A DNA stretch of 64,000 nucleotides, taken from a virus. Location: IMG/VR virus record IMGVR_UViG_3300005573_000070; one strand, given 5' to 3'. Position 1 is the stretch's first letter. Every line of letters starts with the position of its first letter. The notes under the pieces were generated by a model. The model did no database searches, was not told the DNA's origin, and saw nothing but the letters and a program-made list of their open reading frames with translations. This document shows, one piece after another, positions 7,892-62,475 of the stretch. Made by a program: the position numbers and the translations under genes.

Positions 7892-8004
7892 ACCTTGACA
7901 TCCAGGGGATACTGTTTGTAATTATACAGGATATATTATGGGCTGGGGTCCAGCCTTATCTCAGGCTTAGTTCCTGAGAAGGTCCATTATTTGGACCGGA
8001 CCAC
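7892..8004 (+). mobile_element. miniature IS200/IS605 derivative, 113 bp
   Basis: TTTA|accttgacatccaggggata left end; three hairpins; ends GGACCGGACCAC; collinear with the tnpB-remnant copy at 50051-50248. Confidence 0.8.
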
Positions 8005-8391
8005 TTTGGTCAAGAGATACTGGTCATCTCTCAGGTAAACTATAGTATATTTTCCCTTCACTTTTTCTCCTTCAAATTCTACGACCATCCGTTTTGGGTC
8101 CGCATCCACGACTTTATAAAAACCCTTGTCATAAATTTTAACGGAACCGCCACCGTACTCACCTTTCGGAATTTCCCCTTCGAAATGTATATACTCTGAA
8201 GGATGTTCCTCGACTTGGACCATCAAAACCTTTTCACCTTCTTCCGGTAATTTAGCTTTCGGAATGGCGTAAGATATTAACACAGTATCCTCGGACTCGG
8301 GTACAGGTTCTGGGGTTCGGTCAAACCTACGTTTCTTTACATATCTCTCGAACAAATTCTTTTCTTCTCTATCTAAAACATCCCTGGTCAT
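7987..8391 (-). CDS. C-terminal part of LigD-type 3'-phosphoesterase
   Basis: KRRFDRTPEP, SYAIPK, QVEEHPSEY..FEG.IP.GEYGGG.V.IYD.G motifs; lacks the QxH...HYDxRLE segment. Confidence 0.85.
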   Translation of the reverse strand: MTRDVLDREEKNLFERYVKKRRFDRTPEPVPESEDTVLISYAIPKAKLPEEGEKVLMVQVEEHPSEYIHFEGEIPKGEYGGGSVKIYDKGFYKVVDADPKRMVVEFEGEKVKGKYTIVYLRDDQYLLTKVVRSK

Positions 8392-8392
8392 A

Positions 8393-8414
8393 GTAGTCTG
8401 GCCCGATAATAGGC
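8393..8414 (-). repeat. solo right-end copy of miniature element
   Basis: ttatcgggccagactac matches ttatcggaccagaccac at 15/17. Confidence 0.7.
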
Positions 8415-8442
8415 TTTGACGAAAAGATGTGACTTATTGTCG

Positions 8443-10698
8443 TTACAAGGACTCTTCGTCAACCTTGACAACTTCTTGTTCCCAGACAGGTACTTCTTTA
8501 CCGGTACTGGCCCATACAACTTTCAGTGCCCCGTCGACTTTTTTCTCAACTACAACACCTAGCTCGCCAGTTTTGCGATGCATTACACAATCATAAACAA
8601 ATATAGGCTCGTTAGCGGTCTTGATTTGTTTCTTCTCCGGTTTGAATGAAACACTATCTAACAAACCATCAATTATCGCATTCTTAGTAATCTCAACTTT
8701 AGGAGTTTTTGACTTCAACTGAGCTTCTTTCTCAAGAGTACCATATAAGCAAGTTGAACAATTAGGGTACTCAAGACCGTAAGGGCATGATGAACACAAC
8801 GTCGCTCGCCTGACAACCATTCCGCTAACAGGGCACTCTACCAACGTTTCTTCTATTCTGTCGTTCGTTTCCTCAAAATCAAAAGATCCAGAACTGACAA
8901 TGAGCTCTGATGTACCGTCACTTAATAGTTCGTCATAATTCGTAAGTAGTACCTGGTCACCGTCAGTACCTAGATAAACATACCTGTCTTTACCAACTGT
9001 TATTACACTTCCTACTTTCTTCATAGACCATTTTATAATTGAGATCATTTCTTTTATCCGTTCTCTAACTTCTGGTGGTTCGATCCGATCAAGACCCGAA
9101 TAAATCTTGTCTAAGAAACTGTTCCATAAGTAAGTTGCTGCGGCATATATCGTATCCAATGTTGGGAACGAAGAAAGGAACTGATGAATCCAATCTACTA
9201 CATTTGTTGCGGATTCCCTGATCTTTCTGGCATAGAGACGAATCTCGTTCTTATCTATCTTTGCCTGATAATTTTCACCGTAGTAAGATCGGAACAAGTT
9301 ATCAAGGATCGTGGCAACAGTCTCGTCTGATATAATACCGCTTCCCTTAAACCTGTTATATATTTTGACCATTTCGTCTCGGGTATCTTGCAAAATTCTT
9401 CGTTCTCTTTCTTCAGTGCGTGGAACAGGTCCCTGTTTTCTTCGTTTAAAAAGCTTTGACGCCTGGTCTCTGAAAAATGAGTCAATAGCGTTTTTTACTG
9501 GAATGGCTAACAAGATCTGAGCACCAAATGCGTCAAGAATCTGTTTCTGCGGATCTTCATACTGCATCAACTTACTTATGTCGAGGGCCTCGACAAGATT
9601 TGGTTTCAATATGTTATCGTACCATTTGTCGAACGCGTCTGGACTAACAAAAGAGATCCTGTTCTTGGAAAAATAGTTTTCTATTTCCTGTTTAATGTTG
9701 GCCTTCTTGCTATCAATATCCTGAATGGACCGAATATGGTTCTTAATAATCTCGTATAACTGGGGTTCGAAGTCATGGGGAACCAGCTTACCTGGGGTCA
9801 ATTCTATATATTGTTCTCTTGTCGGATTTAGAAGCTCGTTTATGGCCAAAGCTATCGCACTACGTACCCGATTAACTTTCTGACCACCAACAAATACCGG
9901 AATTATCTTAGTTGTAATAGTTTCTACTATGGCTGGCTCAACGTAATCCTTCATCAACTGACTAAGAGCAACATCGTTGTTTGGCTCAAGATTGACACCG
10001 TTTGCGTTAAGTAACTCAAGAATCAGCGACTTAAGACTATCTAAAAATTTAGTAATATCGTCTTTTTTGTCGGTTACCAAGTACGATTCGACAAGGCTAA
10101 CGAGAACATCTTTGTGCAACTGCTCATAAAACGCGCCCAGAACAAGGTTATACGCCGTTTTGAACATGTTGAGAACCCATTCTCCCCTTTCTGATCTAGG
10201 CGTCTTTGAAATTATCGTTTTTGTTGACAACAATGCCATAATGTTCGACAAGTATTGTAAAACAGGCCTGAACCTAATAAACGGCATGGCCGCGTTCGCG
10301 AGAGTACCGGGTCGGGCTCGTCCCTTTTTGTGTTCGGTAACCAATTGAGAAGCAGCCTGGTCTATTTCGGCAAACAAATCTTTCATTTTTCGGTCTGCTT
10401 CTGATATCATTCGTTGTAAGTCGCTACCAGTCGAAACTTCACCTTCAGCCTCACCACCCGGTAATTCTTCATAAACACTAAAACCGGACTCACCAGGAAC
10501 ATATACGTCCAAATCCTCCTCTTCAAACTGAGCTTTCTTGGTAAAATAGTACAGTTTGAAGATAAGAGGGTCAACAAGTTCGGCCTGGACAACAAACCCA
10601 CGGCCGTCATTATAGACGACCAGATAATCAGGTCCTATATAATAAGCGGTACCACGTTGTCCCGAAATGCTAGAGATTTTAATCCCATAGTCCGACAT
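8443..10698 (-). CDS. large multidomain hypothetical protein (helical core, Cys cluster, C-terminal SH3-like domain); candidate internal head protein
   Basis: Start reassigned to ATG 10698 (GGAGGG RBS). Confidence 0.6.
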   Translation of the reverse strand: MSDYGIKISSISGQRGTAYYIGPDYLVVYNDGRGFVVQAELVDPLIFKLYYFTKKAQFEEEDLDVYVPGESGFSVYEELPGGEAEGEVSTGSDLQRMISEADRKMKDLFAEIDQAASQLVTEHKKGRARPGTLANAAMPFIRFRPVLQYLSNIMALLSTKTIISKTPRSERGEWVLNMFKTAYNLVLGAFYEQLHKDVLVSLVESYLVTDKKDDITKFLDSLKSLILELLNANGVNLEPNNDVALSQLMKDYVEPAIVETITTKIIPVFVGGQKVNRVRSAIALAINELLNPTREQYIELTPGKLVPHDFEPQLYEIIKNHIRSIQDIDSKKANIKQEIENYFSKNRISFVSPDAFDKWYDNILKPNLVEALDISKLMQYEDPQKQILDAFGAQILLAIPVKNAIDSFFRDQASKLFKRRKQGPVPRTEERERRILQDTRDEMVKIYNRFKGSGIISDETVATILDNLFRSYYGENYQAKIDKNEIRLYARKIRESATNVVDWIHQFLSSFPTLDTIYAAATYLWNSFLDKIYSGLDRIEPPEVRERIKEMISIIKWSMKKVGSVITVGKDRYVYLGTDGDQVLLTNYDELLSDGTSELIVSSGSFDFEETNDRIEETLVECPVSGMVVRRATLCSSCPYGLEYPNCSTCLYGTLEKEAQLKSKTPKVEITKNAIIDGLLDSVSFKPEKKQIKTANEPIFVYDCVMHRKTGELGVVVEKKVDGALKVVWASTGKEVPVWEQEVVKVDEESL

Positions 10699-13378
10699 GG
10701 TCTGTCCCTCCCAATATCTCTTCGATTGTTTCAGGCCTTGCAAAGGATTCGTCAAGACCGCCACTCTCGACAGTACCAACTACTTCAGCTTCTGGTGTTT
10801 CTGGTATTTCGGTTTCCGGTTTCTCTTCCTCTTCTACTCCTTCTTCTGTTTCCTGACGAATCTTTTCATATTCTTCAACGTATTCTTGTTTTTCAGCCTC
10901 GACCCTAGCCTTTTCGTATTTCTCTTCCAGATCTTGCTTACGTTTACGAAGGTCACTAATTATTGTGTCCAAACGAGATACAAGATCGTCTAGACCGGTT
11001 CCTTCAGCTCGTTGCTTTTGACGGGACACAACATCAATTTCGGTATCGACTTCTTCAACGGTCTTCTCGTAGATATCAGTTATTTTTTCTGGGTCTCGAC
11101 TGATCTCGTCGGAAACAGCTTGTGCGAAATCATCAGCCGACATTCTTGAGAAATCCTCCGGAGAAAATCTATACAAGACCGGCAAACTACCAATTAAGAA
11201 CTTGGTACCACGAGTACCTTCAGGATACTGGAACACGGTCTTACGAAGGTCTCTTATTACCGTGTTTATTGTGTCAATATACGGAGCAATTGACGTAACT
11301 GCACTATCAAAATCAGGGCCCTTTTTGTCCCTTGCTACCAAAGCCGAAACGTTAGAAACTAGTGCAATCGCTTCTGGAACAATTGTAGATTCTATTTCCT
11401 TCTCTGCTTTCTCTACAACATACATTGTCTTTGTACCTAACGACAAAAGTATACCATCAATAGAAGATACTAGTTTGTCGTAATGTGGTTTTATGTTTTT
11501 ATCGACAATCTCTGTATTAAGATTTTTTGACGCCCAGTCATAAAGAGAACTAACGGCGTCTCTCAATGTACGCAATGTGTTTTCCAACCGGCTTGTGTTG
11601 TCAATAACAGAAGATATCCGATCTATCTCGTTGAAAACGCTCGCAATTTCGTAAACCGTTCTTAGGAAAGGAACATAAAGCATTCCGTATGACCTTGGAA
11701 CCTGTAACCGTCTATGCAATGTAACAGATGTAGGTATATATTCTTTCCACAGATATTTTTCCCTTTCGAAAACTTCTTTGGTTGGAACAGTTTTAGATTT
11801 TGGTTTTTCGGCCCCGAACAAAACTTCCTTAACTCCGAACGATCCGGCTATCTCAACGATTGCAGACCTAACAGCTTTTTCCAAATCAGTTCCGGGACGA
11901 GCCATAACTTTAGCAAGGTTCGACGATATAGTCTTATATGCGTTAATAAAACTCTTGCGGTCAAGAACGTTCCAAGTTGCACTAAAAGTTTGACCAGCAT
12001 ACTCTACAACTGCTGTTACGAAATGGGCGCTCTCTTTAAGTGATGGATTGTACACTTTCCTCATGATCAATTTAACGGCAATGGTCGGAATCACTTGGTT
12101 CGCAACATTTACGACTTTGTTCCGGTAAGTTGTCCTGTACGCATGACGAATACTTTCCTTAACTTTTGGTGGTAAGTCGGCTCTATCTAGAACAGCATCG
12201 AACGTGTCAAGAACAGCACGAATTGCAATTAACCGTCTCAACGCCATAACAGTTGCCGAACTAAGATCAGATAACGCGGAACGAACTTGTTTGTGATAAT
12301 GCTTAGCCAAATCAACGACATTTTTAATGTAAAGAGCAGCCTGGTCAATTCTTTGGCGTTTCTCAAGCGTTGTAGACGCCTTACGAGCCTCTTCAAGAGC
12401 GTCTATTGCATTTTGTAGATCCCCTCTGAAATGGATCCCTGGATAATGCTCTGTCAAGGTTCGTAAATCGTTTACCGCCGTGTCTAACACAGAATCCGTT
12501 TGCTGAATCTCTTTTCGGACCTCTTCAGGAGTTCCGGCCTGTTCTGCGTTGTACAACCGGCGAGATTGGTCTTCCAGGTCCCGATGTAGTTTTCTTAACT
12601 GTTTGATGAAAGGACCAACGTCCCAACCGGTTCCCTCTTCTGGTGATCCAAGAACTTCCGTTTCTATATCTGAGTAAATATCTGGTATAACATTACGGAG
12701 ATCGGACAAAAGACCGAACAACAGTTCGTGTCCCGGACTTTCTTCAGAAAGGGGTCGTGGTTTGAAGGGAAGAGGACTACCTTCAGGCATGTCAAGTAAA
12801 TTACCCAATGTTGTGTATATCGGTTCGCCTACCTTTGCGAAGAAATTGCGCAAAGCTTCTTTCAAGTCTTCAGGTATTGGCCCCGTTTCCTTTATCGTGG
12901 TCAGCTGGTCTATCAAATAGTTCTGTAAAGAATCACAAAGAGCTGTTCTCTGGTCTCGTGGTAAGGACTTTATAAACTGGACAAAAGAATTCTCTGTAAT
13001 GAATGGAAGAGCGCCAACAGGTTTTTTCTCGAGAAAGGAAACGACAACATCGTATGGAAAATTGTCTTTTACTATCGGGATGGTATTGTAGAGACCGATC
13101 CATTTCTTGAGAGTTGTCGTGGGTACTCCTTTGCGGAGATCATGTTCGAACAAAGCCTTGATTATCTCTGGAATGCCTAAAGTATAGCCGGCATCTGACA
13201 ACGATTGTAACCATAACAAAACACGGTCAATATTACCAGAATCACGATTGACCAGTTCTTGTACCTTTTCGAGATGGTCCGGAGTAACTTGGTTAACCGA
13301 TTTAATGTCGTCGAGTAGACCCTTCCATTCGTCAAAACGACTTGCACCACTTTTCAACCATTTACTAAGAACGCTCAC
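10679..13378 (-). CDS. 899-aa helical hypothetical protein; candidate internal head protein
   Basis: GTG start overlaps the ligase TGA; N-terminal SKWLKSG motif; acidic C-terminus. Confidence 0.6.
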   Translation of the reverse strand: MSVLSKWLKSGASRFDEWKGLLDDIKSVNQVTPDHLEKVQELVNRDSGNIDRVLLWLQSLSDAGYTLGIPEIIKALFEHDLRKGVPTTTLKKWIGLYNTIPIVKDNFPYDVVVSFLEKKPVGALPFITENSFVQFIKSLPRDQRTALCDSLQNYLIDQLTTIKETGPIPEDLKEALRNFFAKVGEPIYTTLGNLLDMPEGSPLPFKPRPLSEESPGHELLFGLLSDLRNVIPDIYSDIETEVLGSPEEGTGWDVGPFIKQLRKLHRDLEDQSRRLYNAEQAGTPEEVRKEIQQTDSVLDTAVNDLRTLTEHYPGIHFRGDLQNAIDALEEARKASTTLEKRQRIDQAALYIKNVVDLAKHYHKQVRSALSDLSSATVMALRRLIAIRAVLDTFDAVLDRADLPPKVKESIRHAYRTTYRNKVVNVANQVIPTIAVKLIMRKVYNPSLKESAHFVTAVVEYAGQTFSATWNVLDRKSFINAYKTISSNLAKVMARPGTDLEKAVRSAIVEIAGSFGVKEVLFGAEKPKSKTVPTKEVFEREKYLWKEYIPTSVTLHRRLQVPRSYGMLYVPFLRTVYEIASVFNEIDRISSVIDNTSRLENTLRTLRDAVSSLYDWASKNLNTEIVDKNIKPHYDKLVSSIDGILLSLGTKTMYVVEKAEKEIESTIVPEAIALVSNVSALVARDKKGPDFDSAVTSIAPYIDTINTVIRDLRKTVFQYPEGTRGTKFLIGSLPVLYRFSPEDFSRMSADDFAQAVSDEISRDPEKITDIYEKTVEEVDTEIDVVSRQKQRAEGTGLDDLVSRLDTIISDLRKRKQDLEEKYEKARVEAEKQEYVEEYEKIRQETEEGVEEEEKPETEIPETPEAEVVGTVESGGLDESFARPETIEEILGGTDHVGLWD

Positions 13379-15741
13379 GACCGTACCCTCTCAACAGGGA
13401 CTTCTAATCTTAAATCATAATGGTTTCGGTTTCGTTTGTATGAAAAATGGTCCTGAATAACAAATCGCCCTCTATACCCAATCAAATTCTTAAAGTCCGT
13501 ATTACGGAACGCTTTCTTGGCAAAGTTTGTAATTTTAGCATCTTCTTTTTCGAATTCATCAATTTTTTCAATTTTAATTGGTAACGTAACCAATCCTGTT
13601 CTCCACGATAACGAATACGGTACCTTTATTGACCCGTTATATTTCAACGTACTAACGTCCAACCTAATCATTCTTGGGTCGTGTGTTATTCCAGTTGTTA
13701 GACCAGAATAACCAGACGAGCTGATGAAATCCTCGAGTAATAGTACTAAAGTATGCCGCAAATCGTTAACATTCATCTTCCGTTTCAACTTTCCGAGGAT
13801 GTGAAAACCACGATTACCACTAAATTGTACAGAAAGATCTCTGACCATATCCCACCCTTCTAAAAATTCGTAAAGGTCTTTTGTAACCTGTTTAACTTTT
13901 TTAAACGGAACCTCTTCTCGCGGGTCAATATCAACAAAGAAATAGTCAATGTTTTTACTGTCAATTACTTTGTGAATCTCGACGGTCCGTCCGTGGTTAA
14001 TCTCGTCAAACAGATCCTCAGTTAGAACCATCGGTTCCCCGTCTATATTACGTTTCAGAACAGGACCTTTGTCCGTCTTAATAACGATAAATATCCTTGA
14101 TCCGAAGGGCAATTTGTCTTTGACACTGTTGAAATAGTCATATATTTGTTTCTTGGTCAGTTTGCCATATTCTGATTCTATCACAACATCATTTTCAGTC
14201 CCTGGTTTTAATCCGCTCGTGACCAACCAAGCCCTACTCACCCGTCTGATTTCAGTAGGATGTGCTTCACTTACATACAAATGCCCTTCATCTATTGGTT
14301 CGTCCCATAGAACTAAATAATCGATATCGGTCCGTTCAAGATAATTACCACATTCGGGGCATACATAATAAACTGAAAACATTGGAAAGTTCCGTCTAGG
14401 AACAGGTATCGTTTGCACGTTACAATTAGGACACCAAATCTGTTCGTAATCTATGATCGTTCCTGTAATCCCTTTAGCTATACTTACGATGCGGTCGCCC
14501 GGTTTATACCCTTCGTACGAATCATTACCCATATCAATTTGCAGACAGTGCAAACCATCATTTACTGGGTACATAAGTCCGTTCACAAAACAACCACATT
14601 TCTCAAGTAACGCTTTATCTTCTGATAAAATGTATGTGTACTGTTTAGCTACTATCGGTATCAACTGACCACTGTGTTTCTTTACTACATCTGGTGGTAA
14701 AACCTGGGTTATCCGCAGATCTTCTGGTGTTAACTGTTTGTCTTCACGGATACGTTTGAAAGAAGGCTGTCTTAACGTACCAGCAGGATAATCATCTACA
14801 TAAACCCATTTTTTATTTTTTCTATCGAACTTCATGCCAGGACCTTCCTCAATATGAATCTCTCGGGCCTCAACTTCCACAACCTTAGGATCCTCAAATG
14901 GGTCCACATAAATCATCCTTCCCTTGCGGAAAACCTCGTGTTCTTCAGCCCATTCCAACCACTCTTCACGCTCTTTGTCAGTAAAACCAGATCCTACCAT
15001 GGAGTCAAAGATAAATAACCCTTCTTCGTTCATATAAGCAAGCTGTAAGGCGCCCATTCTGGTAGGATCTTTCTTGGACAATTCAACACCTACAACCGCG
15101 AAGTCTACAGTTAAAACAGGTTTCACTTTTATTCGAGTTCCGTCTTCAAAGACAATTACCAGTCCCTCCCACATACTTTTTTCAGATAATACTGTCTTCC
15201 ATGCCTTACCAAAATCCCTTGTTTGGAACACAGTAACAGGAGACACTCTTGTACCTTTAAACAACCGTTGTACCAAGTTAATACGGTCAAATATGGGTTT
15301 CTCCAAATAGTTTTTGCCATCAATTGAAATAATATCGAAGATCATCAGATGGATTTTGTTTTCGTCTTCTAGATCTTTTGGTGCGCGGAGAATACTGATC
15401 GCTTTCGGATAAGACATCACAACACCCGGTCTCTCAAGAACATATAGCTCACCAACCGCGACCAGTTCGTTCGTTCTCTTACCATCTAGTAAAGCCTTGA
15501 ATTCGTTCGTAACTGGTAGATCGGTCCGGACACGACCATTTTTCGACAACAAGTAACATTGATCTTTTTTGCGAGAATAATGGACCAAAGATAGTTCACC
15601 GTCAATCTTTCCGGTTATCAAATAGTTGCCCTTGAGATACTTTGGGGCATCTTTGTAATCAACCGTATCAATAGGCCATTCCTTCTTGTATGCATGTAGA
15701 ACCGGTAATAAAGGATGATCTTTGTTAATAAACTGCTTCAT
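13375..15741 (-). CDS. ligD: LigD-like fusion: ATP-dependent DNA ligase + SH3/Zn-ribbon + AEP primase-polymerase + N-terminal part of phosphoesterase
   Basis: KIDG, GELY, FDI, EGLV, RIKVK ligase motifs and OB domain; VDIDP, SGNRGFH, KVPYSL AEP motifs; ends FVIQDH...HYDLRLE. Confidence 0.88.
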   Translation of the reverse strand: MKQFINKDHPLLPVLHAYKKEWPIDTVDYKDAPKYLKGNYLITGKIDGELSLVHYSRKKDQCYLLSKNGRVRTDLPVTNEFKALLDGKRTNELVAVGELYVLERPGVVMSYPKAISILRAPKDLEDENKIHLMIFDIISIDGKNYLEKPIFDRINLVQRLFKGTRVSPVTVFQTRDFGKAWKTVLSEKSMWEGLVIVFEDGTRIKVKPVLTVDFAVVGVELSKKDPTRMGALQLAYMNEEGLFIFDSMVGSGFTDKEREEWLEWAEEHEVFRKGRMIYVDPFEDPKVVEVEAREIHIEEGPGMKFDRKNKKWVYVDDYPAGTLRQPSFKRIREDKQLTPEDLRITQVLPPDVVKKHSGQLIPIVAKQYTYILSEDKALLEKCGCFVNGLMYPVNDGLHCLQIDMGNDSYEGYKPGDRIVSIAKGITGTIIDYEQIWCPNCNVQTIPVPRRNFPMFSVYYVCPECGNYLERTDIDYLVLWDEPIDEGHLYVSEAHPTEIRRVSRAWLVTSGLKPGTENDVVIESEYGKLTKKQIYDYFNSVKDKLPFGSRIFIVIKTDKGPVLKRNIDGEPMVLTEDLFDEINHGRTVEIHKVIDSKNIDYFFVDIDPREEVPFKKVKQVTKDLYEFLEGWDMVRDLSVQFSGNRGFHILGKLKRKMNVNDLRHTLVLLLEDFISSSGYSGLTTGITHDPRMIRLDVSTLKYNGSIKVPYSLSWRTGLVTLPIKIEKIDEFEKEDAKITNFAKKAFRNTDFKNLIGYRGRFVIQDHFSYKRNRNHYDLRLEVPVERVRS

Positions 15742-26039: not shown

Positions 26040-26153
26040 TCTTTAAAAAATAAGGCCCGCCAAGCCTATCTTTTCAGGCAAACGTCCCTTTGCAGGGCGG
26101 TGTCGCGGGCCACAAACCTGTTCTAGAGGCCCCTATGAGCCGCGTTTCAGGCG
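26040..26153 (-). ncRNA. candidate structured RNA or multi-stem terminator downstream of the major capsid gene
   Basis: GGCCCGC/GCGGGCC closing stem enclosing CCCT-GCAA-AGGG and GCCT..AGGC, followed by TTATTTTTT. Confidence 0.35.
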
Positions 26154-26297
26154 GTGGTCTGGTCCAATAACGGACCCTAATGACCCCAAAGGGGCCTCTT
26201 GAGTTTAATTTAACCCCTTATTCAGACGGTCTGGTCCAATAAACGGACCTTCTCAGGACAAATAACCTGAGGTAAGGCTAGACCCTAGCCCATAATA
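26154..26297 (-). mobile_element. two tandem miniature-element right-end copies (26154-26178 and 26226-26297)
   Basis: ggtccgttattggaccagaccac, plus a three-hairpin copy directly after the MCP stop. Confidence 0.8.
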
Positions 26298-26302
26298 TAA
26301 CC

Positions 26303-27223
26303 TTATCCGGTTATGTCTAATCTTGCAACACCAGCAGTGTTGTGAATACCCATACCGATTTGTTCCCAGGCAACGATATCAAACTGCTGCTGCGGAACAT
26401 TGTCCCATATCTTAATTTCAACAGCTTTCCTTTCTGGGAGCCTTCCAAGTTTGTCTGGTGTTGTTACACAGTAAATATATCCTTCTTCTAATTTGGTTGC
26501 AAGGATCAGTCTTACCCCGTGTAATACACCAAATTGGCCGGTCTCAATTATTACGTTTAATGAGACCTGATCTAAGTCTTTGGCGTCCCAGCTAAGGACG
26601 TCTTCATAGTATGCGGGATTCATTAAATATGCGAAAGGAACGAGTTGCATTTTAGCGATGGTCGCATATAATTTTGCGAAAGCACTTCTCGCTAAAGGTC
26701 TTGTAACATCAACAGGGATATTTGGACTAACATCAGAAGCTTTTTTGACTAGTTTGAAGATTTCCAAATCTTCTGCTATTGCTACTGCTATAGCTGTTCT
26801 TTCTTTTGCTCTGTCAAATACAGGGTATCTTCTGATTGTTATCTCTTCCCATTTTATGGTTTCGTTGACTGAAATTGGGAAGGTTGGGAACTCAACCCTT
26901 TTTACGTTTGTTTCAACGATAGGTGCTGTACCCCTTGCTGCAATTTTTACAGCACCATACTCAGGAATATCGAGATCGTATACTGGAATCTCGCCCTGAG
27001 GAAGCTCGTCAACAAGTAGCAGTTTTCTACCAACTGCTACGTAATCCAGCCTGTTCTTTAAAGGTGTTTGCATCACGAAAGCTACCCTTTTTGCCCAGTT
27101 TGGAGAAGCAAGCAATTTTGCCCACGCTTGCTCTGCAATTTCTGGACTTACGGGAACAGTTTCGGAAGCTGCTTTCTTTACAAAAGATGAACCTGACCAA
27201 ACTTGTTCAAAATTTGCAGGCAT
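26303..27223 (-). CDS. major capsid protein (HK97-fold)
   Basis: 306 aa after protease and decoration genes; DELPQG..PVYD, FDRAK....AED, G.LHG patterns. Confidence 0.8.
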   Translation of the reverse strand: MPANFEQVWSGSSFVKKAASETVPVSPEIAEQAWAKLLASPNWAKRVAFVMQTPLKNRLDYVAVGRKLLLVDELPQGEIPVYDLDIPEYGAVKIAARGTAPIVETNVKRVEFPTFPISVNETIKWEEITIRRYPVFDRAKERTAIAVAIAEDLEIFKLVKKASDVSPNIPVDVTRPLARSAFAKLYATIAKMQLVPFAYLMNPAYYEDVLSWDAKDLDQVSLNVIIETGQFGVLHGVRLILATKLEEGYIYCVTTPDKLGRLPERKAVEIKIWDNVPQQQFDIVAWEQIGMGIHNTAGVARLDITG

Positions 27224-30629: not shown

Positions 30630-30633
30630 TTAC

Positions 30634-30658
30634 GTGGTCTGGCCCAATAACGGGCCGC
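30634..30658 (-). repeat. solo right-end copy of miniature element
   Basis: gcggcccgttattgggccagaccac, with compensatory GGCCC/GGGCC stem. Confidence 0.75.
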
Positions 30659-30682
30659 TTCTCCAAAACGAGGTAAAGAACC

Positions 30683-36889: not shown

Positions 36890-36934
36890 ATTCCCTCCCC
36901 ACGACCGGACCCACAACGATAAACCACTTGGCTC

Positions 36935-37096
36935 GTGACCTGGTCCAATAAAGGACCTTCTAAGGAACTAAGCCTGAGATAAGGCTAGGTCCCCGGCCCA
37001 TAATATGTTCTGTTTGGATGTCAAGGGTAAATAAAGTGGTCCGGACCGATATAATGTGGTCTGGTCCAAATAAAGGCCAGACCCTGTCCCATAATA
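36935..37096 (-). mobile_element. stack of miniature elements (36935-37027 full; 37036-37055 and 37056-37096 partial)
   Basis: TTTA|cccttgacatcc left end; ends GGACCAGGTCAC; two further ...GGACCAC/AGACCAC ends. Confidence 0.8.
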
Positions 37097-37102
37097 GAAA
37101 TT

Positions 37103-37615
37103 TTATCCCCGGGAAGGTAAATTCGATCGAATGGTACCGATCATGCTCAACAAAGTAAAAACCCAATTAAAAGTGTCTGGGTCCGTTCGCTTAAGCTTTC
37201 TAAGGGTGTTGCTACAAATGAGAGATATATTGAAGACTGTACATTTCCGTCTCCTTGCAATTTCTGCAAACTTAGTACCGGCCAGGGCCTCTACCAAGAC
37301 CTCATATGCCTTCGGAGAACACCTTTCCTTCATGACGGCAAGATGCTTCGGAGCTGTTCGTATTAACTCGTTAATGGTCCTTATCTTGGTACGACATCGT
37401 TTCATTATATAGCTAACGGCAGGCTGCGCCATGTTCAGAAGGTAACCAATCTTAGCTTGGGTACGACCTTGTAAATACAACGGGTAACAATCAAACACTT
37501 TTCTCTCGCGTCTTGTAAAATAACATTGGCGACACACCTCGATAATACTATGCTCCGAATAGTTGAAAAGACTAAGAAACTCGACTATTTCTATAATTGT
37601 TCTAAATCTTGACAT
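37103..37615 (-). CDS. tandem-HTH (sigma70 region 4-like) DNA-binding protein
   Basis: TQAKIGYLLNMAQPAVS and FAEIARRRKCTVFNIS helix-turn-helix patterns. Confidence 0.6.
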   Translation of the reverse strand: MSRFRTIIEIVEFLSLFNYSEHSIIEVCRQCYFTRRERKVFDCYPLYLQGRTQAKIGYLLNMAQPAVSYIMKRCRTKIRTINELIRTAPKHLAVMKERCSPKAYEVLVEALAGTKFAEIARRRKCTVFNISLICSNTLRKLKRTDPDTFNWVFTLLSMIGTIRSNLPSRG

Positions 37616-50015: not shown

Positions 50016-50050
50016 TTGTTTTGTACCTCCTTTTTTAAGTTTTTGTTTTG

Positions 50051-50248
50051 CCCTCGACATCCAAGGGATATTATCTATCAAAATATGAAGAAATCGTTCC
50101 AATACAGGATATATCCTAACAAAGAACAGATAGATATATTAAAGATTTTTGACAGAGACTACAACGCATCAAAGAACATATTATGGCTAGGGTCTAACCT
50201 CATCTCAGGTTATTTGTCCTGAGAAGGTCCGTTATCGGACCAGACCAC
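50051..50248 (+). mobile_element. 198-bp IS200/IS605 element with internally deleted tnpB
   Basis: TTTG|ccctcgacatccaagggata left end, tnpB remnant, three hairpins, GGACCAGACCAC end. Confidence 0.88.
50085..50222 (+). pseudogene. tnpB: tnpB remnant (N-terminus fused to RuvC-III)
   Basis: MKKSFQYRIYPNKEQIDIL joined to FDRDYNASKNIL. Confidence 0.88.
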
Positions 50249-50255
50249 TTTTCAT

Positions 50256-50768: not shown

Positions 50769-51007
50769 GACTGTTCCTCCCCAGGTAAATACTTTTCCGC
50801 GACTTTCTTCATATCCACCGTAACGCAATGAACCGCTTTCTTGAAAAGATCAGAAGACACTTTCTCAAGATCCTCGTCTGATTCAACATCTACATCTGCG
50901 GTCAGTTCTGTACTGAACTCCCACGACTTATAGTCGTAACTTATTTTTCTGGTATATCTTTTCGTTATTCGAACTATTTTCATGTTAAACACCTCTCTTT
51001 TTGTCAA
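50765..51007 (-). CDS. hypothetical protein
   Basis: 80-aa ORF. Confidence 0.5.
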   Translation of the reverse strand: MTKREVFNMKIVRITKRYTRKISYDYKSWEFSTELTADVDVESDEDLEKVSSDLFKKAVHCVTVDMKKVAEKYLPGEEQS

Positions 51008-54370: not shown

Positions 54371-54382
54371 TACAGTCCTCTC

Positions 54383-54412
54383 GAATCTAGATCGATCTCA
54401 ATAACGTAATTT
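54383..54412 (-). repeat. 30-bp exact copy of 61675-61704
   Basis: aaattacgttattgagatcgatctagattc is identical at both sites, in inverted orientation. Confidence 0.92.
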
Positions 54413-54420
54413 GGCCTTTC

Positions 54421-54451
54421 TTAGAAGGTTCATTATTTTGGACCAGGTCAC
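54421..54451 (+). repeat. right-end copy of miniature element
   Basis: agaaggttcattattttggaccaggtcac; its TCAC gives the TGA stop of 54448..54714. Confidence 0.75.
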
Positions 54452-54714
54452 TCTTTGGAAACACCTGTGTCAGAATATAGCCGCTTTACGACAGCGTACA
54501 GATGTTTCTCGATCCGGCCTAGTATACAGTTAGTACATATGGACATGTCGAGTTTGGCCTGATTGGTCTGTCTAAGACACGCTTTCAGGTCCGTAAAAGG
54601 ACATTCTGTTGCTTTTACGACTTGCACAGTTTGATCAGTTCTGTTCTTCATCGAACCTCCTCCTTCTTCTTTACCCTTTGCTAAAGTTTTAAAAAACCTC
54701 TGGTGTCCGAACAA
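54448..54714 (-). CDS. small Cys-rich hypothetical protein
   Basis: CP....C...C..C; likely start MKNRT after GGAGG. Confidence 0.45.
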   Translation of the reverse strand: MFGHQRFFKTLAKGKEEGGGSMKNRTDQTVQVVKATECPFTDLKACLRQTNQAKLDMSICTNCILGRIEKHLYAVVKRLYSDTGVSKE

Positions 54715-55645
54715 TCGCGTCTAATTTCTTACCATCATAATCTCTTACAACAACCCATCCTACGACGGACTGGATCCCTTTTTGCAATAAGTAAGAATTC
54801 TCTCGTTGTAAAGTTCCGGCCATAATCGTGTAATTGTTGGGTGGAAAAGACCATATGCCAAGCATATGTAAATGCCCCGCGATTAGAAAAGTAGGCCTCT
54901 CGACCAAATTACGTAATATTTTTTGGATCATATAAGACCATGCATAAGATGGTGCGCCAGAACCGTGTACCATTAGGATTGACCATCTACTCGCCACCAG
55001 CTTAGCCATATGCCCGAAATATTCACAATTCTCAACATTACTCGCAATATACTTGATCGGGTCATGCCCTACCTTCCAGGAACCTTTAAGCTTTTCCTCA
55101 TGGTTTCCGATAATCAGAACTTTATGAATGTCTTTCGGGATCTTATTAAGAAGCTTAATGGCGTATTCCTCCTGGACATCGATGGACGGCTCTGTAACGT
55201 CCATTGCCTCAACAGAATAAACGCCCAGACCTTGAAGTAAATCCCCCGCGTGAAGGACTGTCTTAATCTTAAAAGTAACGCAATCTTCGACCAGTTTATT
55301 GAAAGCGATCATAGAAAATCCTCGGCTACAAATGTGCCAATCGCTGGTAATTAGTATAGGGAATTCGACCTTACCAAGAACTTTATAGTATTTGTCCTTA
55401 TCGAAGGTACCGTACCTGACAAGACCTACTTTTTTATCGCGGCCAGAATATATGTACTTTAAATCATACCCTTCCGCCTCAATGTCTTTCAAAACATGTT
55501 CAATATTAGATACAACAATTCCGTTGCTTCTGAGCCTATTTTCCAGTTCCTTAATCGATACTGGAAATGTACTCTCAATAAGAATACGTAAAATGGCGTT
55601 CTTGGCTTCCTCTCTTGATCGTGATAACAAACTTTTTATATCCAT
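54689..55645 (-). CDS. HTH + calcineurin-like metallophosphoesterase
   Basis: SDWH, HAGD, GNHE, HG, GHLH. Confidence 0.8.
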   Translation of the reverse strand: MDIKSLLSRSREEAKNAILRILIESTFPVSIKELENRLRSNGIVVSNIEHVLKDIEAEGYDLKYIYSGRDKKVGLVRYGTFDKDKYYKVLGKVEFPILITSDWHICSRGFSMIAFNKLVEDCVTFKIKTVLHAGDLLQGLGVYSVEAMDVTEPSIDVQEEYAIKLLNKIPKDIHKVLIIGNHEEKLKGSWKVGHDPIKYIASNVENCEYFGHMAKLVASRWSILMVHGSGAPSYAWSYMIQKILRNLVERPTFLIAGHLHMLGIWSFPPNNYTIMAGTLQRENSYLLQKGIQSVVGWVVVRDYDGKKLDAIVRTPEVF

Positions 55646-56950: not shown

Positions 56951-56952
56951 TG

Positions 56953-57618
56953 TTACTTACTCCCTACCACAATTTTTGGTGAGCAGAATTCTTTAACCTC
57001 ACAATAACTACATAGTTCGGATGGTTCCGGTTCTGGTAAAGTTCCTTTTTCAAGAGATGTACTAAGAATTTCTAGTCTCTTGCTTATATCGACTGGTTCT
57101 TCGTCAATATAAACGGTATAAATCATTTTGCCGACAAAAACAATAGCTATCTTTTCTACTGGTAGATCTAACATCTGTTTGTAAATGCTCAATTGTTTTT
57201 TGTACCAGGGTTTGACCGACGAACTTGTTTTAAAATCGTAAATTGTTTTTGTTTTGTAGCTATAAAGATCAAGGGTACCGGTCAATATGTTCGGTCCGTA
57301 CCTCTTCTCCATTTTATATTCGGACAAATATCCCTGTTTTGTTTTAAAATAGTCTGACAAACTTCTGTGAACAAGAATACCGTTAACTGCGGCGATCACT
57401 CCGTTAATACTCATGAAGTAATCCTTTGTTAACTGTAAAACGGTTCTACGTAAACAGCTTGTTATCTGAGAAACTGAGAACTGGGAATGTTCTTTGAAAT
57501 AACTAATCTGATTATCGACAAAAATATCGATAACAAAGGACGGGGTACATCGAGCGGAACATTTCAAACAATCCTTAAACAACACTTTTCCTTTTAAACA
57601 GTTAATCCCTTTGATCAT
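56953..57618 (-). CDS. Cas4-like PD-(D/E)xK exonuclease
   Basis: G.LD, DFKT, QLSIY, C.YC...C. Confidence 0.8.
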   Translation of the reverse strand: MIKGINCLKGKVLFKDCLKCSARCTPSFVIDIFVDNQISYFKEHSQFSVSQITSCLRRTVLQLTKDYFMSINGVIAAVNGILVHRSLSDYFKTKQGYLSEYKMEKRYGPNILTGTLDLYSYKTKTIYDFKTSSSVKPWYKKQLSIYKQMLDLPVEKIAIVFVGKMIYTVYIDEEPVDISKRLEILSTSLEKGTLPEPEPSELCSYCEVKEFCSPKIVVGSK

Positions 57619-57638
57619 TTGGTTCTTGTTCCCCTCTC

Positions 57639-57709
57639 ATCTGATTGAAAAATGAAAGGAACTGAGAGATCGTTGGTCCGAACACAAATCTTCCATTTTT
57701 CAATCGGAT
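57639..57709. repeat. TTGAAAAATG...CATTTTTCAA inverted-arm element, copy 2
   Basis: atctgattgaaaaatg / catttttcaatcggat. Confidence 0.8.
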
Positions 57710-57722
57710 TTCGAATCAAAAC

Positions 57723-57747
57723 AGGTCCATTTATCGGACCAGACCAC
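57723..57747 (+). repeat. solo right-end copy of miniature element
   Basis: aggtccatttatcggaccagaccac. Confidence 0.8.
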
Positions 57748-57811
57748 AACCATTTATTCCTGACAGGCAAAACTACCTTGTTTTTCAAATTCATTATGCT
57801 CTTGGTCAGAG

Positions 57812-59503: not shown

Positions 59504-59687
59504 AACTCTCCTCCTATAATGCAAAATTCTGTACAGTCTTTAAAAACTACAAAATACCGCACTTGTCAAGTTATCCGGTAACAAAGCTCTGGAGGAGTAT
59601 GGAGGATGATGGAGGATGATATATCTCCCTCTATGATATGACATGATATGATAGATATAAATAAAATAAAAATATCTAGATTTTAAC

Positions 59688-59731
59688 TTTTTGGGGGAGT
59701 AATATTATAAATATATTACTCCACCCAAAAA
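59688..59731. repeat. long palindrome
   Basis: tttttgggggagtaatat-tataaat-atattactcc(a)cccaaaaa. Confidence 0.85.
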
Positions 59732-59987
59732 GAATATATTTAACCTGAAACATTTTTGGTCAAATGGTACCACGATGGACGGGTCCTTTGTTCTTTTACT
59801 TATCAACAATTGGGAACGTTTTATAGTCCGTTCTCTTTCACTCCCGGAGAAAAATATCGTTTTATAAAGAACTCATACATAACCACAGCCCTATCTAAGC
59901 TATCCATCCCGCCGCCACATTGAACCAGATATTGTACGCCCCGGCAAACTGAACTTGCCAACTTTTCATCCAATTTTCAAATCTATC

Positions 59988-60066
59988 AAATCTCATTGAA
60001 AAATGAAAGGAAATCGAGTGACTGGGGTGTCTAATCTCACATCTTGTTCATTTTTCAATAAGATTT
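59988..60066. repeat. TTGAAAAATGAA...TTCATTTTTCAA inverted-arm element, copy 3
   Basis: aaatctcattgaaaaatgaa / ttcatttttcaataagattt. Confidence 0.8.
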
Positions 60067-60075
60067 CGAACTAAA

Positions 60076-60178
60076 GGTCACTCAGACAATCAAAAATCGC
60101 AAAAAATAAAAGCGATCTGCATCAAAACAATATAAACATATTAGCCTATATGGGTCAACTTAAAATTTTTGAGATTTT
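60076..60178 (-). repeat. ~100-bp repeat, copy 2 (inverted relative to 6550-6648)
   Basis: Direct base comparison shows few differences. Confidence 0.9.
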
Positions 60179-60478
60179 TTAAAGTCTCTGTCCAATGTCT
60201 AATGGTCACCTAAAATACACCAATCTCCTGACCATAATACTCCCTAAGAAAGTCTATTATTGAGCCAGACCGTTTTTAAAATCGCATAAAACAAGTTAAA
60301 CTTCAACGACATTCAATTATTTTTTGTTCTTAATGTTTTCCTATTCAAAACCAAAAATATCTCAAAATATCGCAAATTTGACAGGTTTTTAGCGATTTGT
60401 ACCATATTATACCTTACTTACCAGTTAAAACCACTTTTAGAACCAGTTCTTTAGCGAAAGAACCGGTCTAAAACGGAG

Positions 60479-60512
60479 ATGATCGGTCCAATAACGGTCC
60501 TTTCTCAGGTTA
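60479..60512 (-). repeat. degenerate right-end copy of miniature element
   Basis: aacctgagaaaggaccgttattggaccgatcat. Confidence 0.6.
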
Positions 60513-60635
60513 TATCTTGCCAAAATTCCAGTCTCGTTAAAGGGACAGCTTGATTTCCAGTTTTGGTCTTTAACCAGAACTTTTACAGCTCCTTTACCTA
60601 GGCCATACCAGGTTTAAATGTCAGATTAATGACCT

Positions 60636-60766
60636 GGATCTTTACCAAATTTGTGACTGGGCTTGCCCGGTTTTATTATGGTCCGGAGTCTTTACCTCCT
60701 CTTGGGTCTTTACCGGACAAGTTCGGTCCTTACCAGGTCTTTACCAGATAAAATCTGGTCCTTACT
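60636..60766 (+). repeat. six iteron-like repeats, consensus GGTCYTTACC
   Basis: Copies at about 60636, 60686, 60705, 60725, 60736, 60757. Confidence 0.7.
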
Positions 60767-60900
60767 AGATAAAGACGGTGAGGGCGGATGGTTGGTAATG
60801 GACCAGCCATCCTTATTTGTTTTTTATCCGGACGAAACATTACCTCGGCCCCATTGGTACCGAGGGTTTAAAATTCTAAATAAAAAGGAGGTGAAATAAT

Positions 60901-61230
60901 ATGAACCTGAACGTCACCATCAATAACCTGGAACCGGATCGAGTTTATGCCTTGGTGGTAGAGCAACTGAAAGTCCATAAACTCGATCATTACGTTCCCG
61001 GTACCGGCACATACAATGAGTACGTTGATTGGATTGCGAAGACGTGGCCGTGTTCTCGTGATATAGCTGAAGCCATAGCGCGACATAATATCCGGTGTGT
61101 AATTCCGGCACTGGTCGGTTGTTGGCTTGAACCGTACCGTAAGTATGCCCAAGCCAATGTTGATTTTACAGAGAAGGAGCTGAGGGAACTGGCCCAAGAG
61201 TTCGACAAAATTTTCACAGAAAGGAGGTGA
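60901..61230 (+). CDS. hypothetical early protein
   Basis: AGGAGGTGA RBS. Confidence 0.65.
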   Translation: MNLNVTINNLEPDRVYALVVEQLKVHKLDHYVPGTGTYNEYVDWIAKTWPCSRDIAEAIARHNIRCVIPALVGCWLEPYRKYAQANVDFTEKELRELAQEFDKIFTERR

Positions 61231-61412
61231 TAAAAATGAAATCCGAGTTACTAATCTTGAAGTTGTACTTCTTCCTATGTGGGATCTTGTTAGTCATGTT
61301 GGGCATTACCCAATTCATCAACTGTTTCCCTCTGTTTGTGTTCAAGGCTTACTCTGTGATCATGGTAGTTCTTGGCGGAATGTTTATATATCTAGTACTG
61401 AAAAGGAGGTGA
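61227..61412 (+). CDS. small two-TM membrane protein
   Basis: Two hydrophobic helices; strong RBS. Confidence 0.6.
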   Translation: MIKMKSELLILKLYFFLCGILLVMLGITQFINCFPLFVFKAYSVIMVVLGGMFIYLVLKRR

Positions 61413-61417
61413 TAAAA

Positions 61418-61597
61418 ATGAAACTGAATCTATACCTGGAAGTCAGTTCTGGTCGCATCAAGAACATTTTCTTTGCGACCGGAACCAAAATATACAAGGA
61501 GATTGTAGGCAAAACAAATTTGGTAAAACTGGGACCAAGAGATATCAAGCATCTCTTGGCCGTGTTCAAAAAAGGGGGCTACAAAAATGAAAGGTAG
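61418..61597 (+). CDS. small basic hypothetical protein
   Basis: ATG 61418 with AGGAGGTGA RBS. Confidence 0.55.
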   Translation: MKLNLYLEVSSGRIKNIFFATGTKIYKEIVGKTNLVKLGPRDIKHLLAVFKKGGYKNER

Positions 61598-61885
61598 GAC
61601 AGTCATAACAATAATTCCGAAGAGATTGAGAAAGTACAGCGGTAAAGCGGTAAAGCTGTTAAAAAGAAAGGACTAAATTACGTTATTGAGATCGATCTAG
61701 ATTCCATTACGTGTTATCGGGACTTGTTCTCTGTCTTGGTTCACGAATTTTGCCATGTGGCGTTGTCCATGGTACAAGGCGGATCTAGATTCGATCCAAG
61801 AGAGGAGAAGTTATGCTCCAAAATTGGAGGTTTTGCGAGCTTGGTCCTCCAAAATTTCGTTAAAGGAGGACGGTCCGGTCCATAA
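61587..61885 (+). pseudogene. HExxH metalloprotease-like gene frameshifted by an 8-bp duplication
   Basis: Removing one AGCGGTAA unit gives MKGRTV...VKKKGLNYVIEID...LVHEFCHV...GP*. Confidence 0.7.
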
Positions 61886-61929
61886 TATGTTCTGTGCAAT
61901 TACAAATAGTATCCTCTGAATGTCAGGGG
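61870..61929 (-). mobile_element. 60-bp miniature element
   Basis: TTTA|cccctgacattcagaggatac...atattatggaccggaccgt. Confidence 0.75.
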
Positions 61930-61959
61930 TAAAACAAAAACAAAAGGAGGTACAAAACC

Positions 61960-62403
61960 ATGATGAGCAAAAACGAACAAATGAGGCAAATGTATAAACA
62001 AGGGCTATCAGTAAAAGAGATAGCCCAAAAGCTTGGTGTGCCCTATCAACGGGCGTACCAAGTAACACAAAGAATGCAAAGAACGCAAAATGACAAGAGC
62101 GACCAGGTTGTTCGCGGACCTAAAACATGTCACTTCTGTGGTACTGAGGTCGAATACTGGGTCGCAAAGAATGACTTAGCCATTTGTCCAAGTTGCCTCA
62201 GGGAATTAACAAAACTACTAGTTGCTACCGATTGGGACAACCTCGACCTCAAGGAAGGAGATTGTCCATACTGCAACTGTCACTATATTGGTGTGGAGTA
62301 CAATGGAAAGTTTATTTGCGCTGACTGTTTAACCGAGATGGTGCACGAATGGTTTGAGCCCGGTAGTGTGCGAGAGGAGGTCGACACATCAAACCAGGAT
62401 TAG
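61960..62403 (+). CDS. HTH + two C4 Zn-finger protein
   Basis: LSVKEIAQKLGV; CHFC..CPSC; CPYC..CADC. Confidence 0.7.
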   Translation: MMSKNEQMRQMYKQGLSVKEIAQKLGVPYQRAYQVTQRMQRTQNDKSDQVVRGPKTCHFCGTEVEYWVAKNDLAICPSCLRELTKLLVATDWDNLDLKEGDCPYCNCHYIGVEYNGKFICADCLTEMVHEWFEPGSVREEVDTSNQD

Positions 62404-62419
62404 TGACCTGACTAAAAAT

Positions 62420-62475
62420 GCGGCCTGGTCCAAATAATGGACCTTCTCAATGTATAATCCCCTGAATGTCGGGGT
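62420..62475 (-). mobile_element. 56-bp miniature element
   Basis: TTTA|accccgacattcaggggat...gagaaggtccattatttggaccaggccgc. Confidence 0.75.

Follow-up and report, generated by a model that had tools for sequence, protein, structure and literature searches.

We analyzed a 64-kb window (the whole stretch of 64,000 nucleotides) of the IMG/VR virus record IMGVR_UViG_3300005573_000070, which by its gene content belongs to a large tailed phage and in which short related repeats lie at the gene junctions. An earlier note on the window had listed about 14 copies and read them as miniature tnpB-derived IS200/IS605 elements of the PATE kind. The exact pattern GTGGTCYGGTCC-N6-8-GGACC was found four times in the window and not once in 100 shuffles. 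A profile built from 7 seed copies was then run on the window with nhmmer. It detected pieces at 7882-8007, 26153-26178, 26224-26306, 30632-30663, 36932-37035, 37052-37125, 50040-50252, 54418-54453, 57723-57748, 60483-60514, 61872-61940, and 62417-62482, as well as at 60242-60276. In total, 15-16 pieces were identified at 12 gene junctions, and both their occurrence in both orientations and their placement, which the earlier note had described, were borne out by nhmmer and the map of open reading frames (ORFs): all pieces are intergenic or overlap a gene's last codons. The profile recovered 12 of the 14 listed coordinates, the one at 60479 weakly, and the copy at 37036 could be read directly as a fragment; the one listed at 8393 is a degenerate look-alike, and the piece at 60242-60276 had been missed. 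The pieces are 20-218 nt long and can be grouped into near-complete miniatures (A, 121 nt; B, 218 nt; C, 101 nt), partial ones (D, E, H, and I), and solo right-end hairpins (26154, 30634, 54421, 57724, and 60242). Their sole reading frame is a fused tnpB stub in element B, and they are too short to encode a transposase.

Element A displays the layout of the family. It begins with a left end (LE) made of TTTCTTTA and the CCTTGACATCC motif, continues with a remnant of the tnpB 5' end, and closes with the tnpB 3' end and right end (RE), which hold three hairpins in the order HP3-HP2-HP1 before a terminal CCAC. Its left flank, CCTCC, is the complement of the Shine-Dalgarno (SD) sequence of the gene starting near 7866-7816, and the stop codon of the upstream gene at 7987-8391 falls in its HP1 loop. 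A copy with 100% identity was found on a public metagenome contig (L031). The LE of element C abuts the CCAC end of the adjoining fragment, which makes this a tandem insertion. Elements I and H are located directly upstream of the SD of the genes at 61960-62403 and 62494-63816, respectively.

Table 1 Features of the repeat family and of the IscB module in the window.
Feature	Position	Strand	Basis
Element A, 121-nt miniature	7884-8004	+	nhmmer E 4e-39; RNA fold gives three RE hairpins
Degenerate right-end look-alike GTAGTCTGGCCCGATAATAGGC, doubtful	8393-8414	-	read directly; nhmmer none at E<=10
Solo right end, HP1 and CCAC	26154-26176	-	exact pattern match; nhmmer E 5e-4
Element E, 5'-truncated: tnpB 3' remnant and HP3-HP2-HP1, without LE	26226-26306	-	nhmmer E 7e-26
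Solo right end, compensated stem GGCCC/GGGCC	30634-30656	-	nhmmer, stem comparison
Element C, 101-nt miniature with the shared deletion junction ACAG/AACATATTATGG	36935-37035	-	nhmmer E 9e-27
Short right-end fragment GTGGTCCGGACC..., between C and D	37036-37055	-	read directly; 12-20 nt
Element D, decayed miniature without HP2	37056-37122	-	nhmmer E 3.5e-13
Element B, 218-nt miniature: LE, tnpB codons 1-19 fused to 353-376, RE	50031-50248	+	nhmmer, tblastn
Solo right end, GTCAC terminus	54421-54451	+	nhmmer E 3e-4
Solo right end	57724-57747	+	exact pattern, nhmmer
Decayed right end	60242-60276	+	nhmmer E 0.012
Weak decayed right end, mismatched stem	60478-60514	-	nhmmer E 0.023
Element I, 76-nt miniature: LE and tnpB 5' remnant joined to last RE bases	61870-61945	-	nhmmer E 4e-15
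Element H, 60-nt miniature: LE motif joined to HP1	62420-62479	-	nhmmer E 8e-11
IscB, intact, 399 aa, with its HEARO RNA	4228-5715	-	RRXRR 4e-65 and HNH
HEARO omegaRNA	5494-5715		Rfam RF02033, 84.3 bits vs gathering 83

We compared the window with four related IMG/VR contigs, G001-G004 (119 kb of relatives), and with public metagenome contigs (L numbers, L019 to L038), among them contigs dense with copies that were found by scanning for the conserved element core. DNA identity to the window is ~82-87% for G001 and G004 and ~70% for G002 and G003; the latter two carry no family copies. On one of the copy-dense contigs, the two halves of the element were found to be separated by a 376-aa ORF encoding TnpB (L020:8850-9995 and L038:3774-4904). 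This protein carries all three Pfam domains (HTH_OrfB_IS605, OrfB_IS605, and Cas12f1-like TNB) together with the RuvC D-E-D and CxxC zinc-finger motifs, and its identity to any named TnpB is ~40-48% or lower. A TnpB 94% identical to it is encoded on L026 within a complete LE-tnpB-RE element (L026:2627-3834), which has the same ends as the miniatures and reads, in order, CCTCC flank, T-rich LE start, ACCTTTAACATCC motif, tnpB, HP3-HP2-HP1, and terminal CCAC. The parent element is ~1.2 kb long and consists of a T-rich LE start (TTTCTTTA), a CCTTGACATYC motif, tnpB, three hairpins, and CCAC. The final codons of tnpB run through HP3 and HP2, with the stop codon inside HP2, and the subterminal hairpin of the right end is HP1. 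Searching with this TnpB by tblastn, we found amino acids 1-19 and 353-376 in element B of the window, 1-58 and 353-376 on L019, and a second full-length copy on L021.

Both ends and the internal sequence of the miniatures are shared with the tnpB-bearing element, and we identify the miniatures as internal-deletion derivatives of a tnpB-only IS200/IS605-family element. The full-length elements with the same ends on related contigs agree with what the earlier note had proposed, including the orientation of the ends (left at the CCTTGACATCC side, right ending CCAC or TCAC). A PATE is an internal-deletion derivative of IS605/IS1341 elements (PMC3119063). As the miniatures derive in this way from a tnpB-only element, they are very probably PATEs, that is, protein-less copies of an IS1341-like tnpB-only IS that have colonised a large hot-spring phage lineage.

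The window contains no tnpA and no intact tnpB, as had been noted, but an intact and selected tnpB is present on another contig of the same assembly. The window sits inside a 77.7-kb ENA contig, ERZ27247235:k141_150235. The ENA assembly also holds L034, which is 100% identical to L022 and has eight more pieces, and L038, which is 99.99% identical to L020 and has the intact tnpB. L034 also overlaps L020, again with 100% identity. Over 11.5 kb, L031 matches the window at 100% identity; its source is metagenome Ga0207433, from which L022 and L019 were obtained too. L038 encodes PTPS/QueD, complementing FolE2, QueC, and a radical-SAM gene in the window. Because of the co-assembly, the shared repeats, and the pathway complementarity, we take the window, L034, and L038 to be one phage. 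At least 28 pieces were found in ~111 kb of this phage. Its intact tnpB on L020/L038 has the same right end as the family, has no left end, and starts against the preceding ORF. Compared with the L026 copy, the resident TnpB has a dN/dS of 0.12, and we regard the resident tnpB as a working, selected gene. Searches of IMG/VR with the TnpB protein and with a 1168-aa protein of L020 gave no match. Immediately beyond the resident tnpB and its right end (L038:4931-4975) lies a degenerate right-end-like stretch, CCTTCCATTATTGACCCGACCAGA, which looks like a tandem remnant.

Filled, empty, and decayed alleles were found among the relatives. Element B is missing from G001-G004, where the flanks otherwise align base for base, and its insertion is clean, 3' of TACCTCC. 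At the site of element E, G003 has no element and reads ...GTTCC followed by an exact 16/16 (18/20) match to the flank of E. Two junctions that are uninterrupted in the window hold copies in G001. Another junction carries a full miniature in G001, a half-deleted copy in G004, and a 30-nt relic in the window. The junction at 57724 has a full 121-nt miniature in G004 with the same flank (CAC followed by AACCATTTA), whereas only the right-end hairpin is left in the window. The junction of element D holds a single decayed copy in G004, the solo right end at 54421 is within a ~70-nt stretch missing from G001 and G004, and the full-length tnpB of L021 corresponds to a 36-nt relic on L022. Loss of tnpB by deletion between short repeats produced the miniatures of 60-218 nt, and the copies decayed further to solo right ends.

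The deletion junctions themselves recur. The A-type junction (ACAG joined to AACATATTATGG) was found together with the same derived LE variant at 5 non-homologous loci, and the B-type junction was found at 2 non-homologous loci of one phage with 95% identity, the second being L034:11036. Since identical deletion junctions occur at different loci, the miniatures were evidently copied after losing tnpB. The presence and absence of copies among relatives, along with one deletion variant at several loci, indicates that the miniatures are not merely scars left in place and have moved between loci and between phages. The earlier note held that the family would be reduced to inert relics if empty sites, a cognate full-length IS, covariation in the stems, and discrete transcripts were all missing; the first three of these were found.

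In four hot-spring DNA runs, we found no contig skipping an element, and the joints seen were with other family copies. One of the runs, X3, does not contain this phage, yet it has element-like pieces at 45-230x depth, which therefore point to another carrier in the hot springs. These elements break short-read assemblies of these phages. A scan of bacterial genomes for the HP2/HP3 core gave a single chance match in Hymenobacter (weak, nhmmer E 6e-4) and no host or other cellular carrier.

We analyzed the hairpins of the right end across 19 copies. RNAalifold proposed a different middle helix, and the three hairpins were instead scored explicitly. Of the cells in the three hairpins, 95.8% were paired, compared with 25-55% when the partners were slid, although these controls are partly biased toward the structure because it was read from the same sequences. 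Four pairs had changed on both sides, and the covariation score was reached by 0 of 500 shuffles. Compensated stems include GGCTAG/CTAGCC, GGCTGG/CCAGCC, GGCCGG/CCGGCC, CTCGGG/CCCGAG, and GGCCC/GGGCC; the last, at 30634, was among the compensatory changes reported by the earlier note, which are real and supported by covariation. The same three hairpins were obtained by minimum-free-energy folding, both for miniature A and for the 3' end of the full-length element. In the RE of L027, which has a 62%-identical TnpB, hairpins of different sequence could be read directly at the same places. These comparisons indicate that the three right-end hairpins are structurally conserved. The left 'hairpin' of the earlier note is a conserved motif, and its fold was found to be no better than that of shuffled sequence.

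The right end has the form ...GGTCC-loop-GGACCNGACCAC, and homology stops right after ...GGACC(A/G)GACCAC in 21 copies, with the variants TCAC, CCGC, and CCGT. This is the GGTCC-loop-GGACC hairpin and CCAC or TCAC end that had been described. Comparison of the right and left ends revealed no inverted termini. At the left, TTTA closes a T-rich stretch (typically TTTCTTTA) and is kept at loci with differing outer flanks, and for that reason it was assigned to the LE. The earlier proposal of TTTA as the target was rejected: it is conserved inside the LE, and the empty alleles put the junction after CCTCC or TTCC. The cleanest insertion points are after TACCTCC (element B) and after GTTCC (element E compared with G003), where the empty alleles continue directly with Y; at the majority of the other copies, the left flank has CCTCC, CCCC, or TTCC as its end. 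We infer from these junctions that the target, and hence the likely target-adjacent motif (TAM), is YTCC.

In 11 of the 14 LE-bearing copies, the flank motif CCTCC or CCCC is the SD complement of a gene reading away from the element, with the start-codon complement just beyond. A YTCC target would therefore explain why the elements are positioned at gene junctions, why the LE-bearing copies are antisense, and why the ribosome-binding site of the downstream gene is kept. The AT-rich HP1 loop gives the upstream gene its stop codon, in three different frames at three sites. We also observed that A-type miniatures carry TGTATAAT, a perfect extended -10 that points into the downstream phage gene (window 7935-7925 and 62450-62457; G001:2525; G004:8870). 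The full-length element has TGTATTGG at this place. The TGTATAAT sequence could be a compensating outward promoter.

Several observations weigh against reading the family as PATEs that were moved by a transposase. The hairpin at the left end does not resemble the one at the right end and is thermodynamically weak, while IS608-type elements have similar TnpA-binding hairpins at both ends. CTCC or CCTCC is present on both sides of the element at G001:14102 and G001:15950, and classical IS200/IS605 insertion makes no target duplication. These double motifs look like a short target duplication or microhomology, and we cannot tell whether they arose by donor read-through to a TAM-like motif or by microhomology copying at the ribosome-binding site. 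The link between the window and the tnpB contig is made by co-assembly, shared repeats, and pathway complementarity, without a physical join. Finally, the search of the window ORFs gave neither a Y1 transposase (PF01797) nor a serine recombinase. Transposases of the Y1 or serine type were likewise not detected in the 119 kb of relatives, in which positive controls fired, or among the called genes of L031, L034, and L038, and no Y1 enzyme was found in the ~102 kb of this phage that were covered. The same puzzle of a missing enzyme exists in the Haloquadratum PATEs (PMC3119063).

Movement could nevertheless be accounted for as follows. Miniatures would be moved to new loci by a Y1 TnpA that acts in trans on single-stranded replicating phage DNA and is encoded either by the host or in a part of the phage not yet sequenced. 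The comparisons place insertion 3' of YTCC, in these compact genomes nearly always an SD complement, so that the element comes to lie upstream of the ribosome-binding site and antisense to that gene, and the site is left intact. Copies would spread between co-infecting relatives by recombination, as the phage encodes RecA, and the phage's own intact TnpB may help this spread by cutting empty alleles. TnpB homing and omegaRNA-bearing PATEs have been described for bacterial IS605 elements (10.1101/2023.03.14.532601). We consider a TnpA of the host or of the unsequenced phage part, followed by recombination between co-infecting phages, the most likely route.

An alternative is that each miniature is what remains in place of its own full-length tnpB insertion, without ever having been mobilised itself. 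Decay in place does occur, as seen from the full tnpB of L021 beside the relic of L022, from the junction that forms a series from the full miniature of G001 through the half copy of G004 to the relic of the window, and from the deletions between short repeats. This would leave inert scars, but independent deletions would not recur to the exact base, as the A-type junction with its LE variant does at five loci and the B-type junction at two loci of one phage, and we therefore regard this explanation as very unlikely. Another alternative is that the pieces are mobile regulatory cassettes, combining a terminator, a promoter, and a ribosome-binding context, that were spread by recombination like PeSLs or are REP elements served by a RAYT. 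PeSLs are short promoter/stem-loop cassettes at gene junctions of T4-type phages, which differ between relatives and could promote module shuffling; they are oriented with transcription and are not derived from transposons. The position of the pieces at gene junctions, mostly just upstream of the SD, the extended -10 TGTATAAT of A-type copies, the stop codons in the HP1 loop, and the short repeats at some junctions are all consistent with such cassettes. However, the sequence consists of the 5' and 3' ends of tnpB plus the IS ends, seven pieces at four loci are oriented against transcription, no T-run follows any hairpin, a scan for promoters and terminators was not above shuffles, and no RAYT/Y1 gene was found in the window or in the 119 kb of relatives. 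This explanation thus appears most improbable, although regulatory side-effects of the PATEs may have been co-opted.

The two classes named in this alternative were also considered as assignments of the family. A GTGG head and a palindrome are present, as in the REP/RAYT class, but the sequence is the right end of a tnpB IS and there is no Y1 gene; the PeSL-type class was rejected because both orientations occur and promoters and terminators are at shuffle level. Unlike PeSLs, these elements are tnpB relics found in both orientations.

For the function of the elements, the earlier note had suggested that they could be recombination hotspots for module shuffling or a dispersed set of omegaRNA-like RNAs; the first idea is conjectural. 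The second would add to the PATE identity rather than replace it. Miniatures with an intact right end might be transcribed into omegaRNA-like RNAs that take their flank as guide and that the TnpB of the phage would use in trans to cut relatives without the insertion, resulting in RNA-guided homing or exclusion when phages co-infect. An intact, selected TnpB is present in the same assembly, the right-end hairpins are kept as structure, right after TTCC the empty allele of G003 agrees with the flank of element E at 16/16 (18/20) positions, the RecA of the phage could serve the repair step, and PATEs are reported often to encode omegaRNAs used in trans (10.1101/2023.03.14.532601). In the full-length element, the scaffold overlaps the tnpB 3' end and the RE, with HP3-HP2-HP1 before CCAC and then the flank. 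The TnpB of ISDra2 requires a 116-nt scaffold whose last bases pair with positions ~-105 (PMC10097598). The scaffold beside the right end is shorter in the miniatures (~78 nt in A-type and ~105 nt in B-type), and both types are without GTGGTAT (~-109; the -105 to -111 segment), a possible pairing partner in the full-length element. In addition, many copies are solo HP1 ends, and conservation of the hairpins fits recognition of single-stranded DNA by a transposase equally well. At the gathering threshold, Rfam gave only HEARO in the window, and it gave nothing on L026/L020 at E<=1. We searched all collected sequence with the 16-nt flanks of 17 right ends, allowing <=2 mismatches. The clearest match was the orthologous empty site in G003; the other matches were of low complexity or unrelated, and no off-site target was found among them. 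Since the miniatures keep less scaffold than ISDra2 TnpB needs, this comparison makes an omegaRNA function for them rather unlikely, and we give the added reading a small chance of being right.

A more far-reaching form of this idea is that the selected tnpB, having no LE, is kept as a resident gene and that the right ends of 25-30 miniatures form its distributed guide library. Every guide would match the junction of its own miniature, and TnpB would cut uninterrupted alleles (YTCC and flank) of co-infecting relatives, with RecA repair copying the element and neighbouring markers. If true, this would be an RNA-guided analogue of the marker exclusion by homing endonucleases between phages, but it is speculative and we think it improbable.

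PATEs and homing by TnpB are established for cellular genomes, and as PATEs the phage miniatures belong to a kind already known. In Haloquadratum walsbyi, PATEs form the HqIRS families and include a 52-bp derivative of ISHwa23, an IS1341-type tnpB element (PMC3119063). These are protein-less and have near-terminal palindromes but no terminal inverted repeats (PMC3119063); the phage miniatures resemble them in lacking both proteins and terminal inverted repeats and, at the right end, in the palindrome HP1. They differ in that the Haloquadratum PATEs reside in an archaeal chromosome, whereas the phage miniatures are found in a large tailed phage and are tied to the SD complement. They are also far more densely spaced than in Haloquadratum, with about one every 4 kb and, in L034, one every 1.5 kb. 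Geobacillus stearothermophilus has PATE-like minimal elements and tnpB-only ISGst elements (Meers et al., 10.1101/2023.03.14.532601), with which the phage elements have in common a non-autonomous character, shared left and right ends, a probably TAM-directed insertion site, an omegaRNA region at the 3' end of tnpB, and the notion that TnpB uses PATE omegaRNAs in trans for homing. The cognate TnpA has been identified in G. stearothermophilus, and excision and homing were shown experimentally, whereas the phage case is read from sequence only and has less scaffold. The resident TnpB is similar to the ISDra2 TnpB of Deinococcus radiodurans (PMC8612924, PMC10097598) in its size (~380-400 aa), RuvC triad, and zinc finger, in a predicted scaffold that extends across the 3' end of the gene into the right end, and in a guide that would come from the flank; its TAM would be YTCC instead of TTGAT, and its RNA has no Rfam match.

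Cyanophage A-1(L) (10.64898/2026.02.14.705889) likewise carries a resident tnpB that some of its close relatives have and others lack, and a protein of Thermus phage TSP4 was among the TnpB matches, another tnpB in a phage. The reports of phage tnpB (A-1(L) and TSP4) concern single genes, whereas here there is a genome-wide family of miniatures. What is unusual is the density, the phage carrier, the tie to the SD, and the company of TnpB and IscB/HEARO. To our knowledge, no phage lineage so densely colonised, with a resident selected TnpB and an intact IscB, has been described so far. With filled, half-decayed, and empty alleles among close relatives, it offers a natural system for studying the movement of tnpB-only elements that have no visible TnpA. 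Further questions for this system are whether gene conversion between co-infecting phages is driven by OMEGA nucleases and how insertion at the SD complement lets a transposon persist in a genome with almost no non-coding DNA.

The window encodes structural and packaging proteins (tail sheath, portal, large terminase, and head protease), replication proteins (family-A DNA polymerase, ATP-dependent ligase, DnaB-type helicase, and primase), repair and recombination proteins (RecA, SbcCD-like and Cas4-like nucleases, and a LigD-type phosphoesterase), and proteins for 7-deazaguanine synthesis (FolE2, QueC, and radical-SAM). According to the ORF map, the genes occupy the minus strand as far as ~59.5 kb, and the plus strand is used from ~60.6 kb onward. 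A megablast search with 20 kb of the window against 50,697 phage records gave no match. The phage genome is incomplete, and CheckV estimates imply ~160-200 kb. The phage was found in hot-spring metagenomes, in DNA runs only; it was present in none of the RNA sequencing runs checked.

The IscB gene lies directly downstream of the HEARO omegaRNA, and the module is located between the tail sheath gene and a 279-aa ORF. By its domains and its RNA, it is a predicted second OMEGA system of the same phage. A link between the IscB element and the miniatures was rejected, as the profile gives nothing in 4000-6000 and there is no shared sequence. We also observed that the region at 38-49 kb contains RecA, SbcCD-like and Cas4-like nucleases, and the FolE2/QueC/radical-SAM gene set for 7-deazaguanine DNA modification; modification of the phage DNA may affect cutting by TnpB or IscB. 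Genes resembling those of end-joining repair were found at 7987-8391 (LigD-type 3'-phosphoesterase) and at 13375-15741 (788-aa ligase).

Between element A and a 348-aa gene (window 7816-7876, minus strand), two short frames of 11 and 17 codons lie behind a strong SD, and the second ends in ATGA, overlapping the annotated start, which would fit a leader peptide or a mis-set start. A 37-nt sequence, GAATCTAGATCGATCTCAATAACGTAATTTGGCCTTT, occurs at 54383-54419 and 61668-61704 in inverted orientation with 92% identity; the copy at 54383 is fused to a solo right end and is missing from G001 and G004. A second repeat family was found at 6550-6689 and 60047-60178, where a 78-nt stretch is 99% identical and inverted at both ends of the minus-strand block. 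Related copies (80-94%) are at L020:7035-7174, on the tnpB contig, and at G001:21676-21919, and TTCATTTTTCAACAAGRTTTGATA repeats lie near this family (6659-6743, 57694, and 59984-60075). The second family may be regulatory or related to replication.

Two adjacent small genes are headed by identical 22-mers, AAAGGAGGTGATAAAAATGAAA, at 61220-61241 and 61402-61423, and contigs of the runs X1 and X2 join 61241 to 61399 or 63002. This suggests that these are paralogous early genes that recombine or vary between strains. The stretch at 54673-55339 has 3x the baseline contig depth in X1 and X2 and 20x depth in X3, which lacks the phage. This depth and the loose contig ends found within the stretch at 55129 suggest that it holds another repeated or mobile sequence inside or beside the Metallophos gene.

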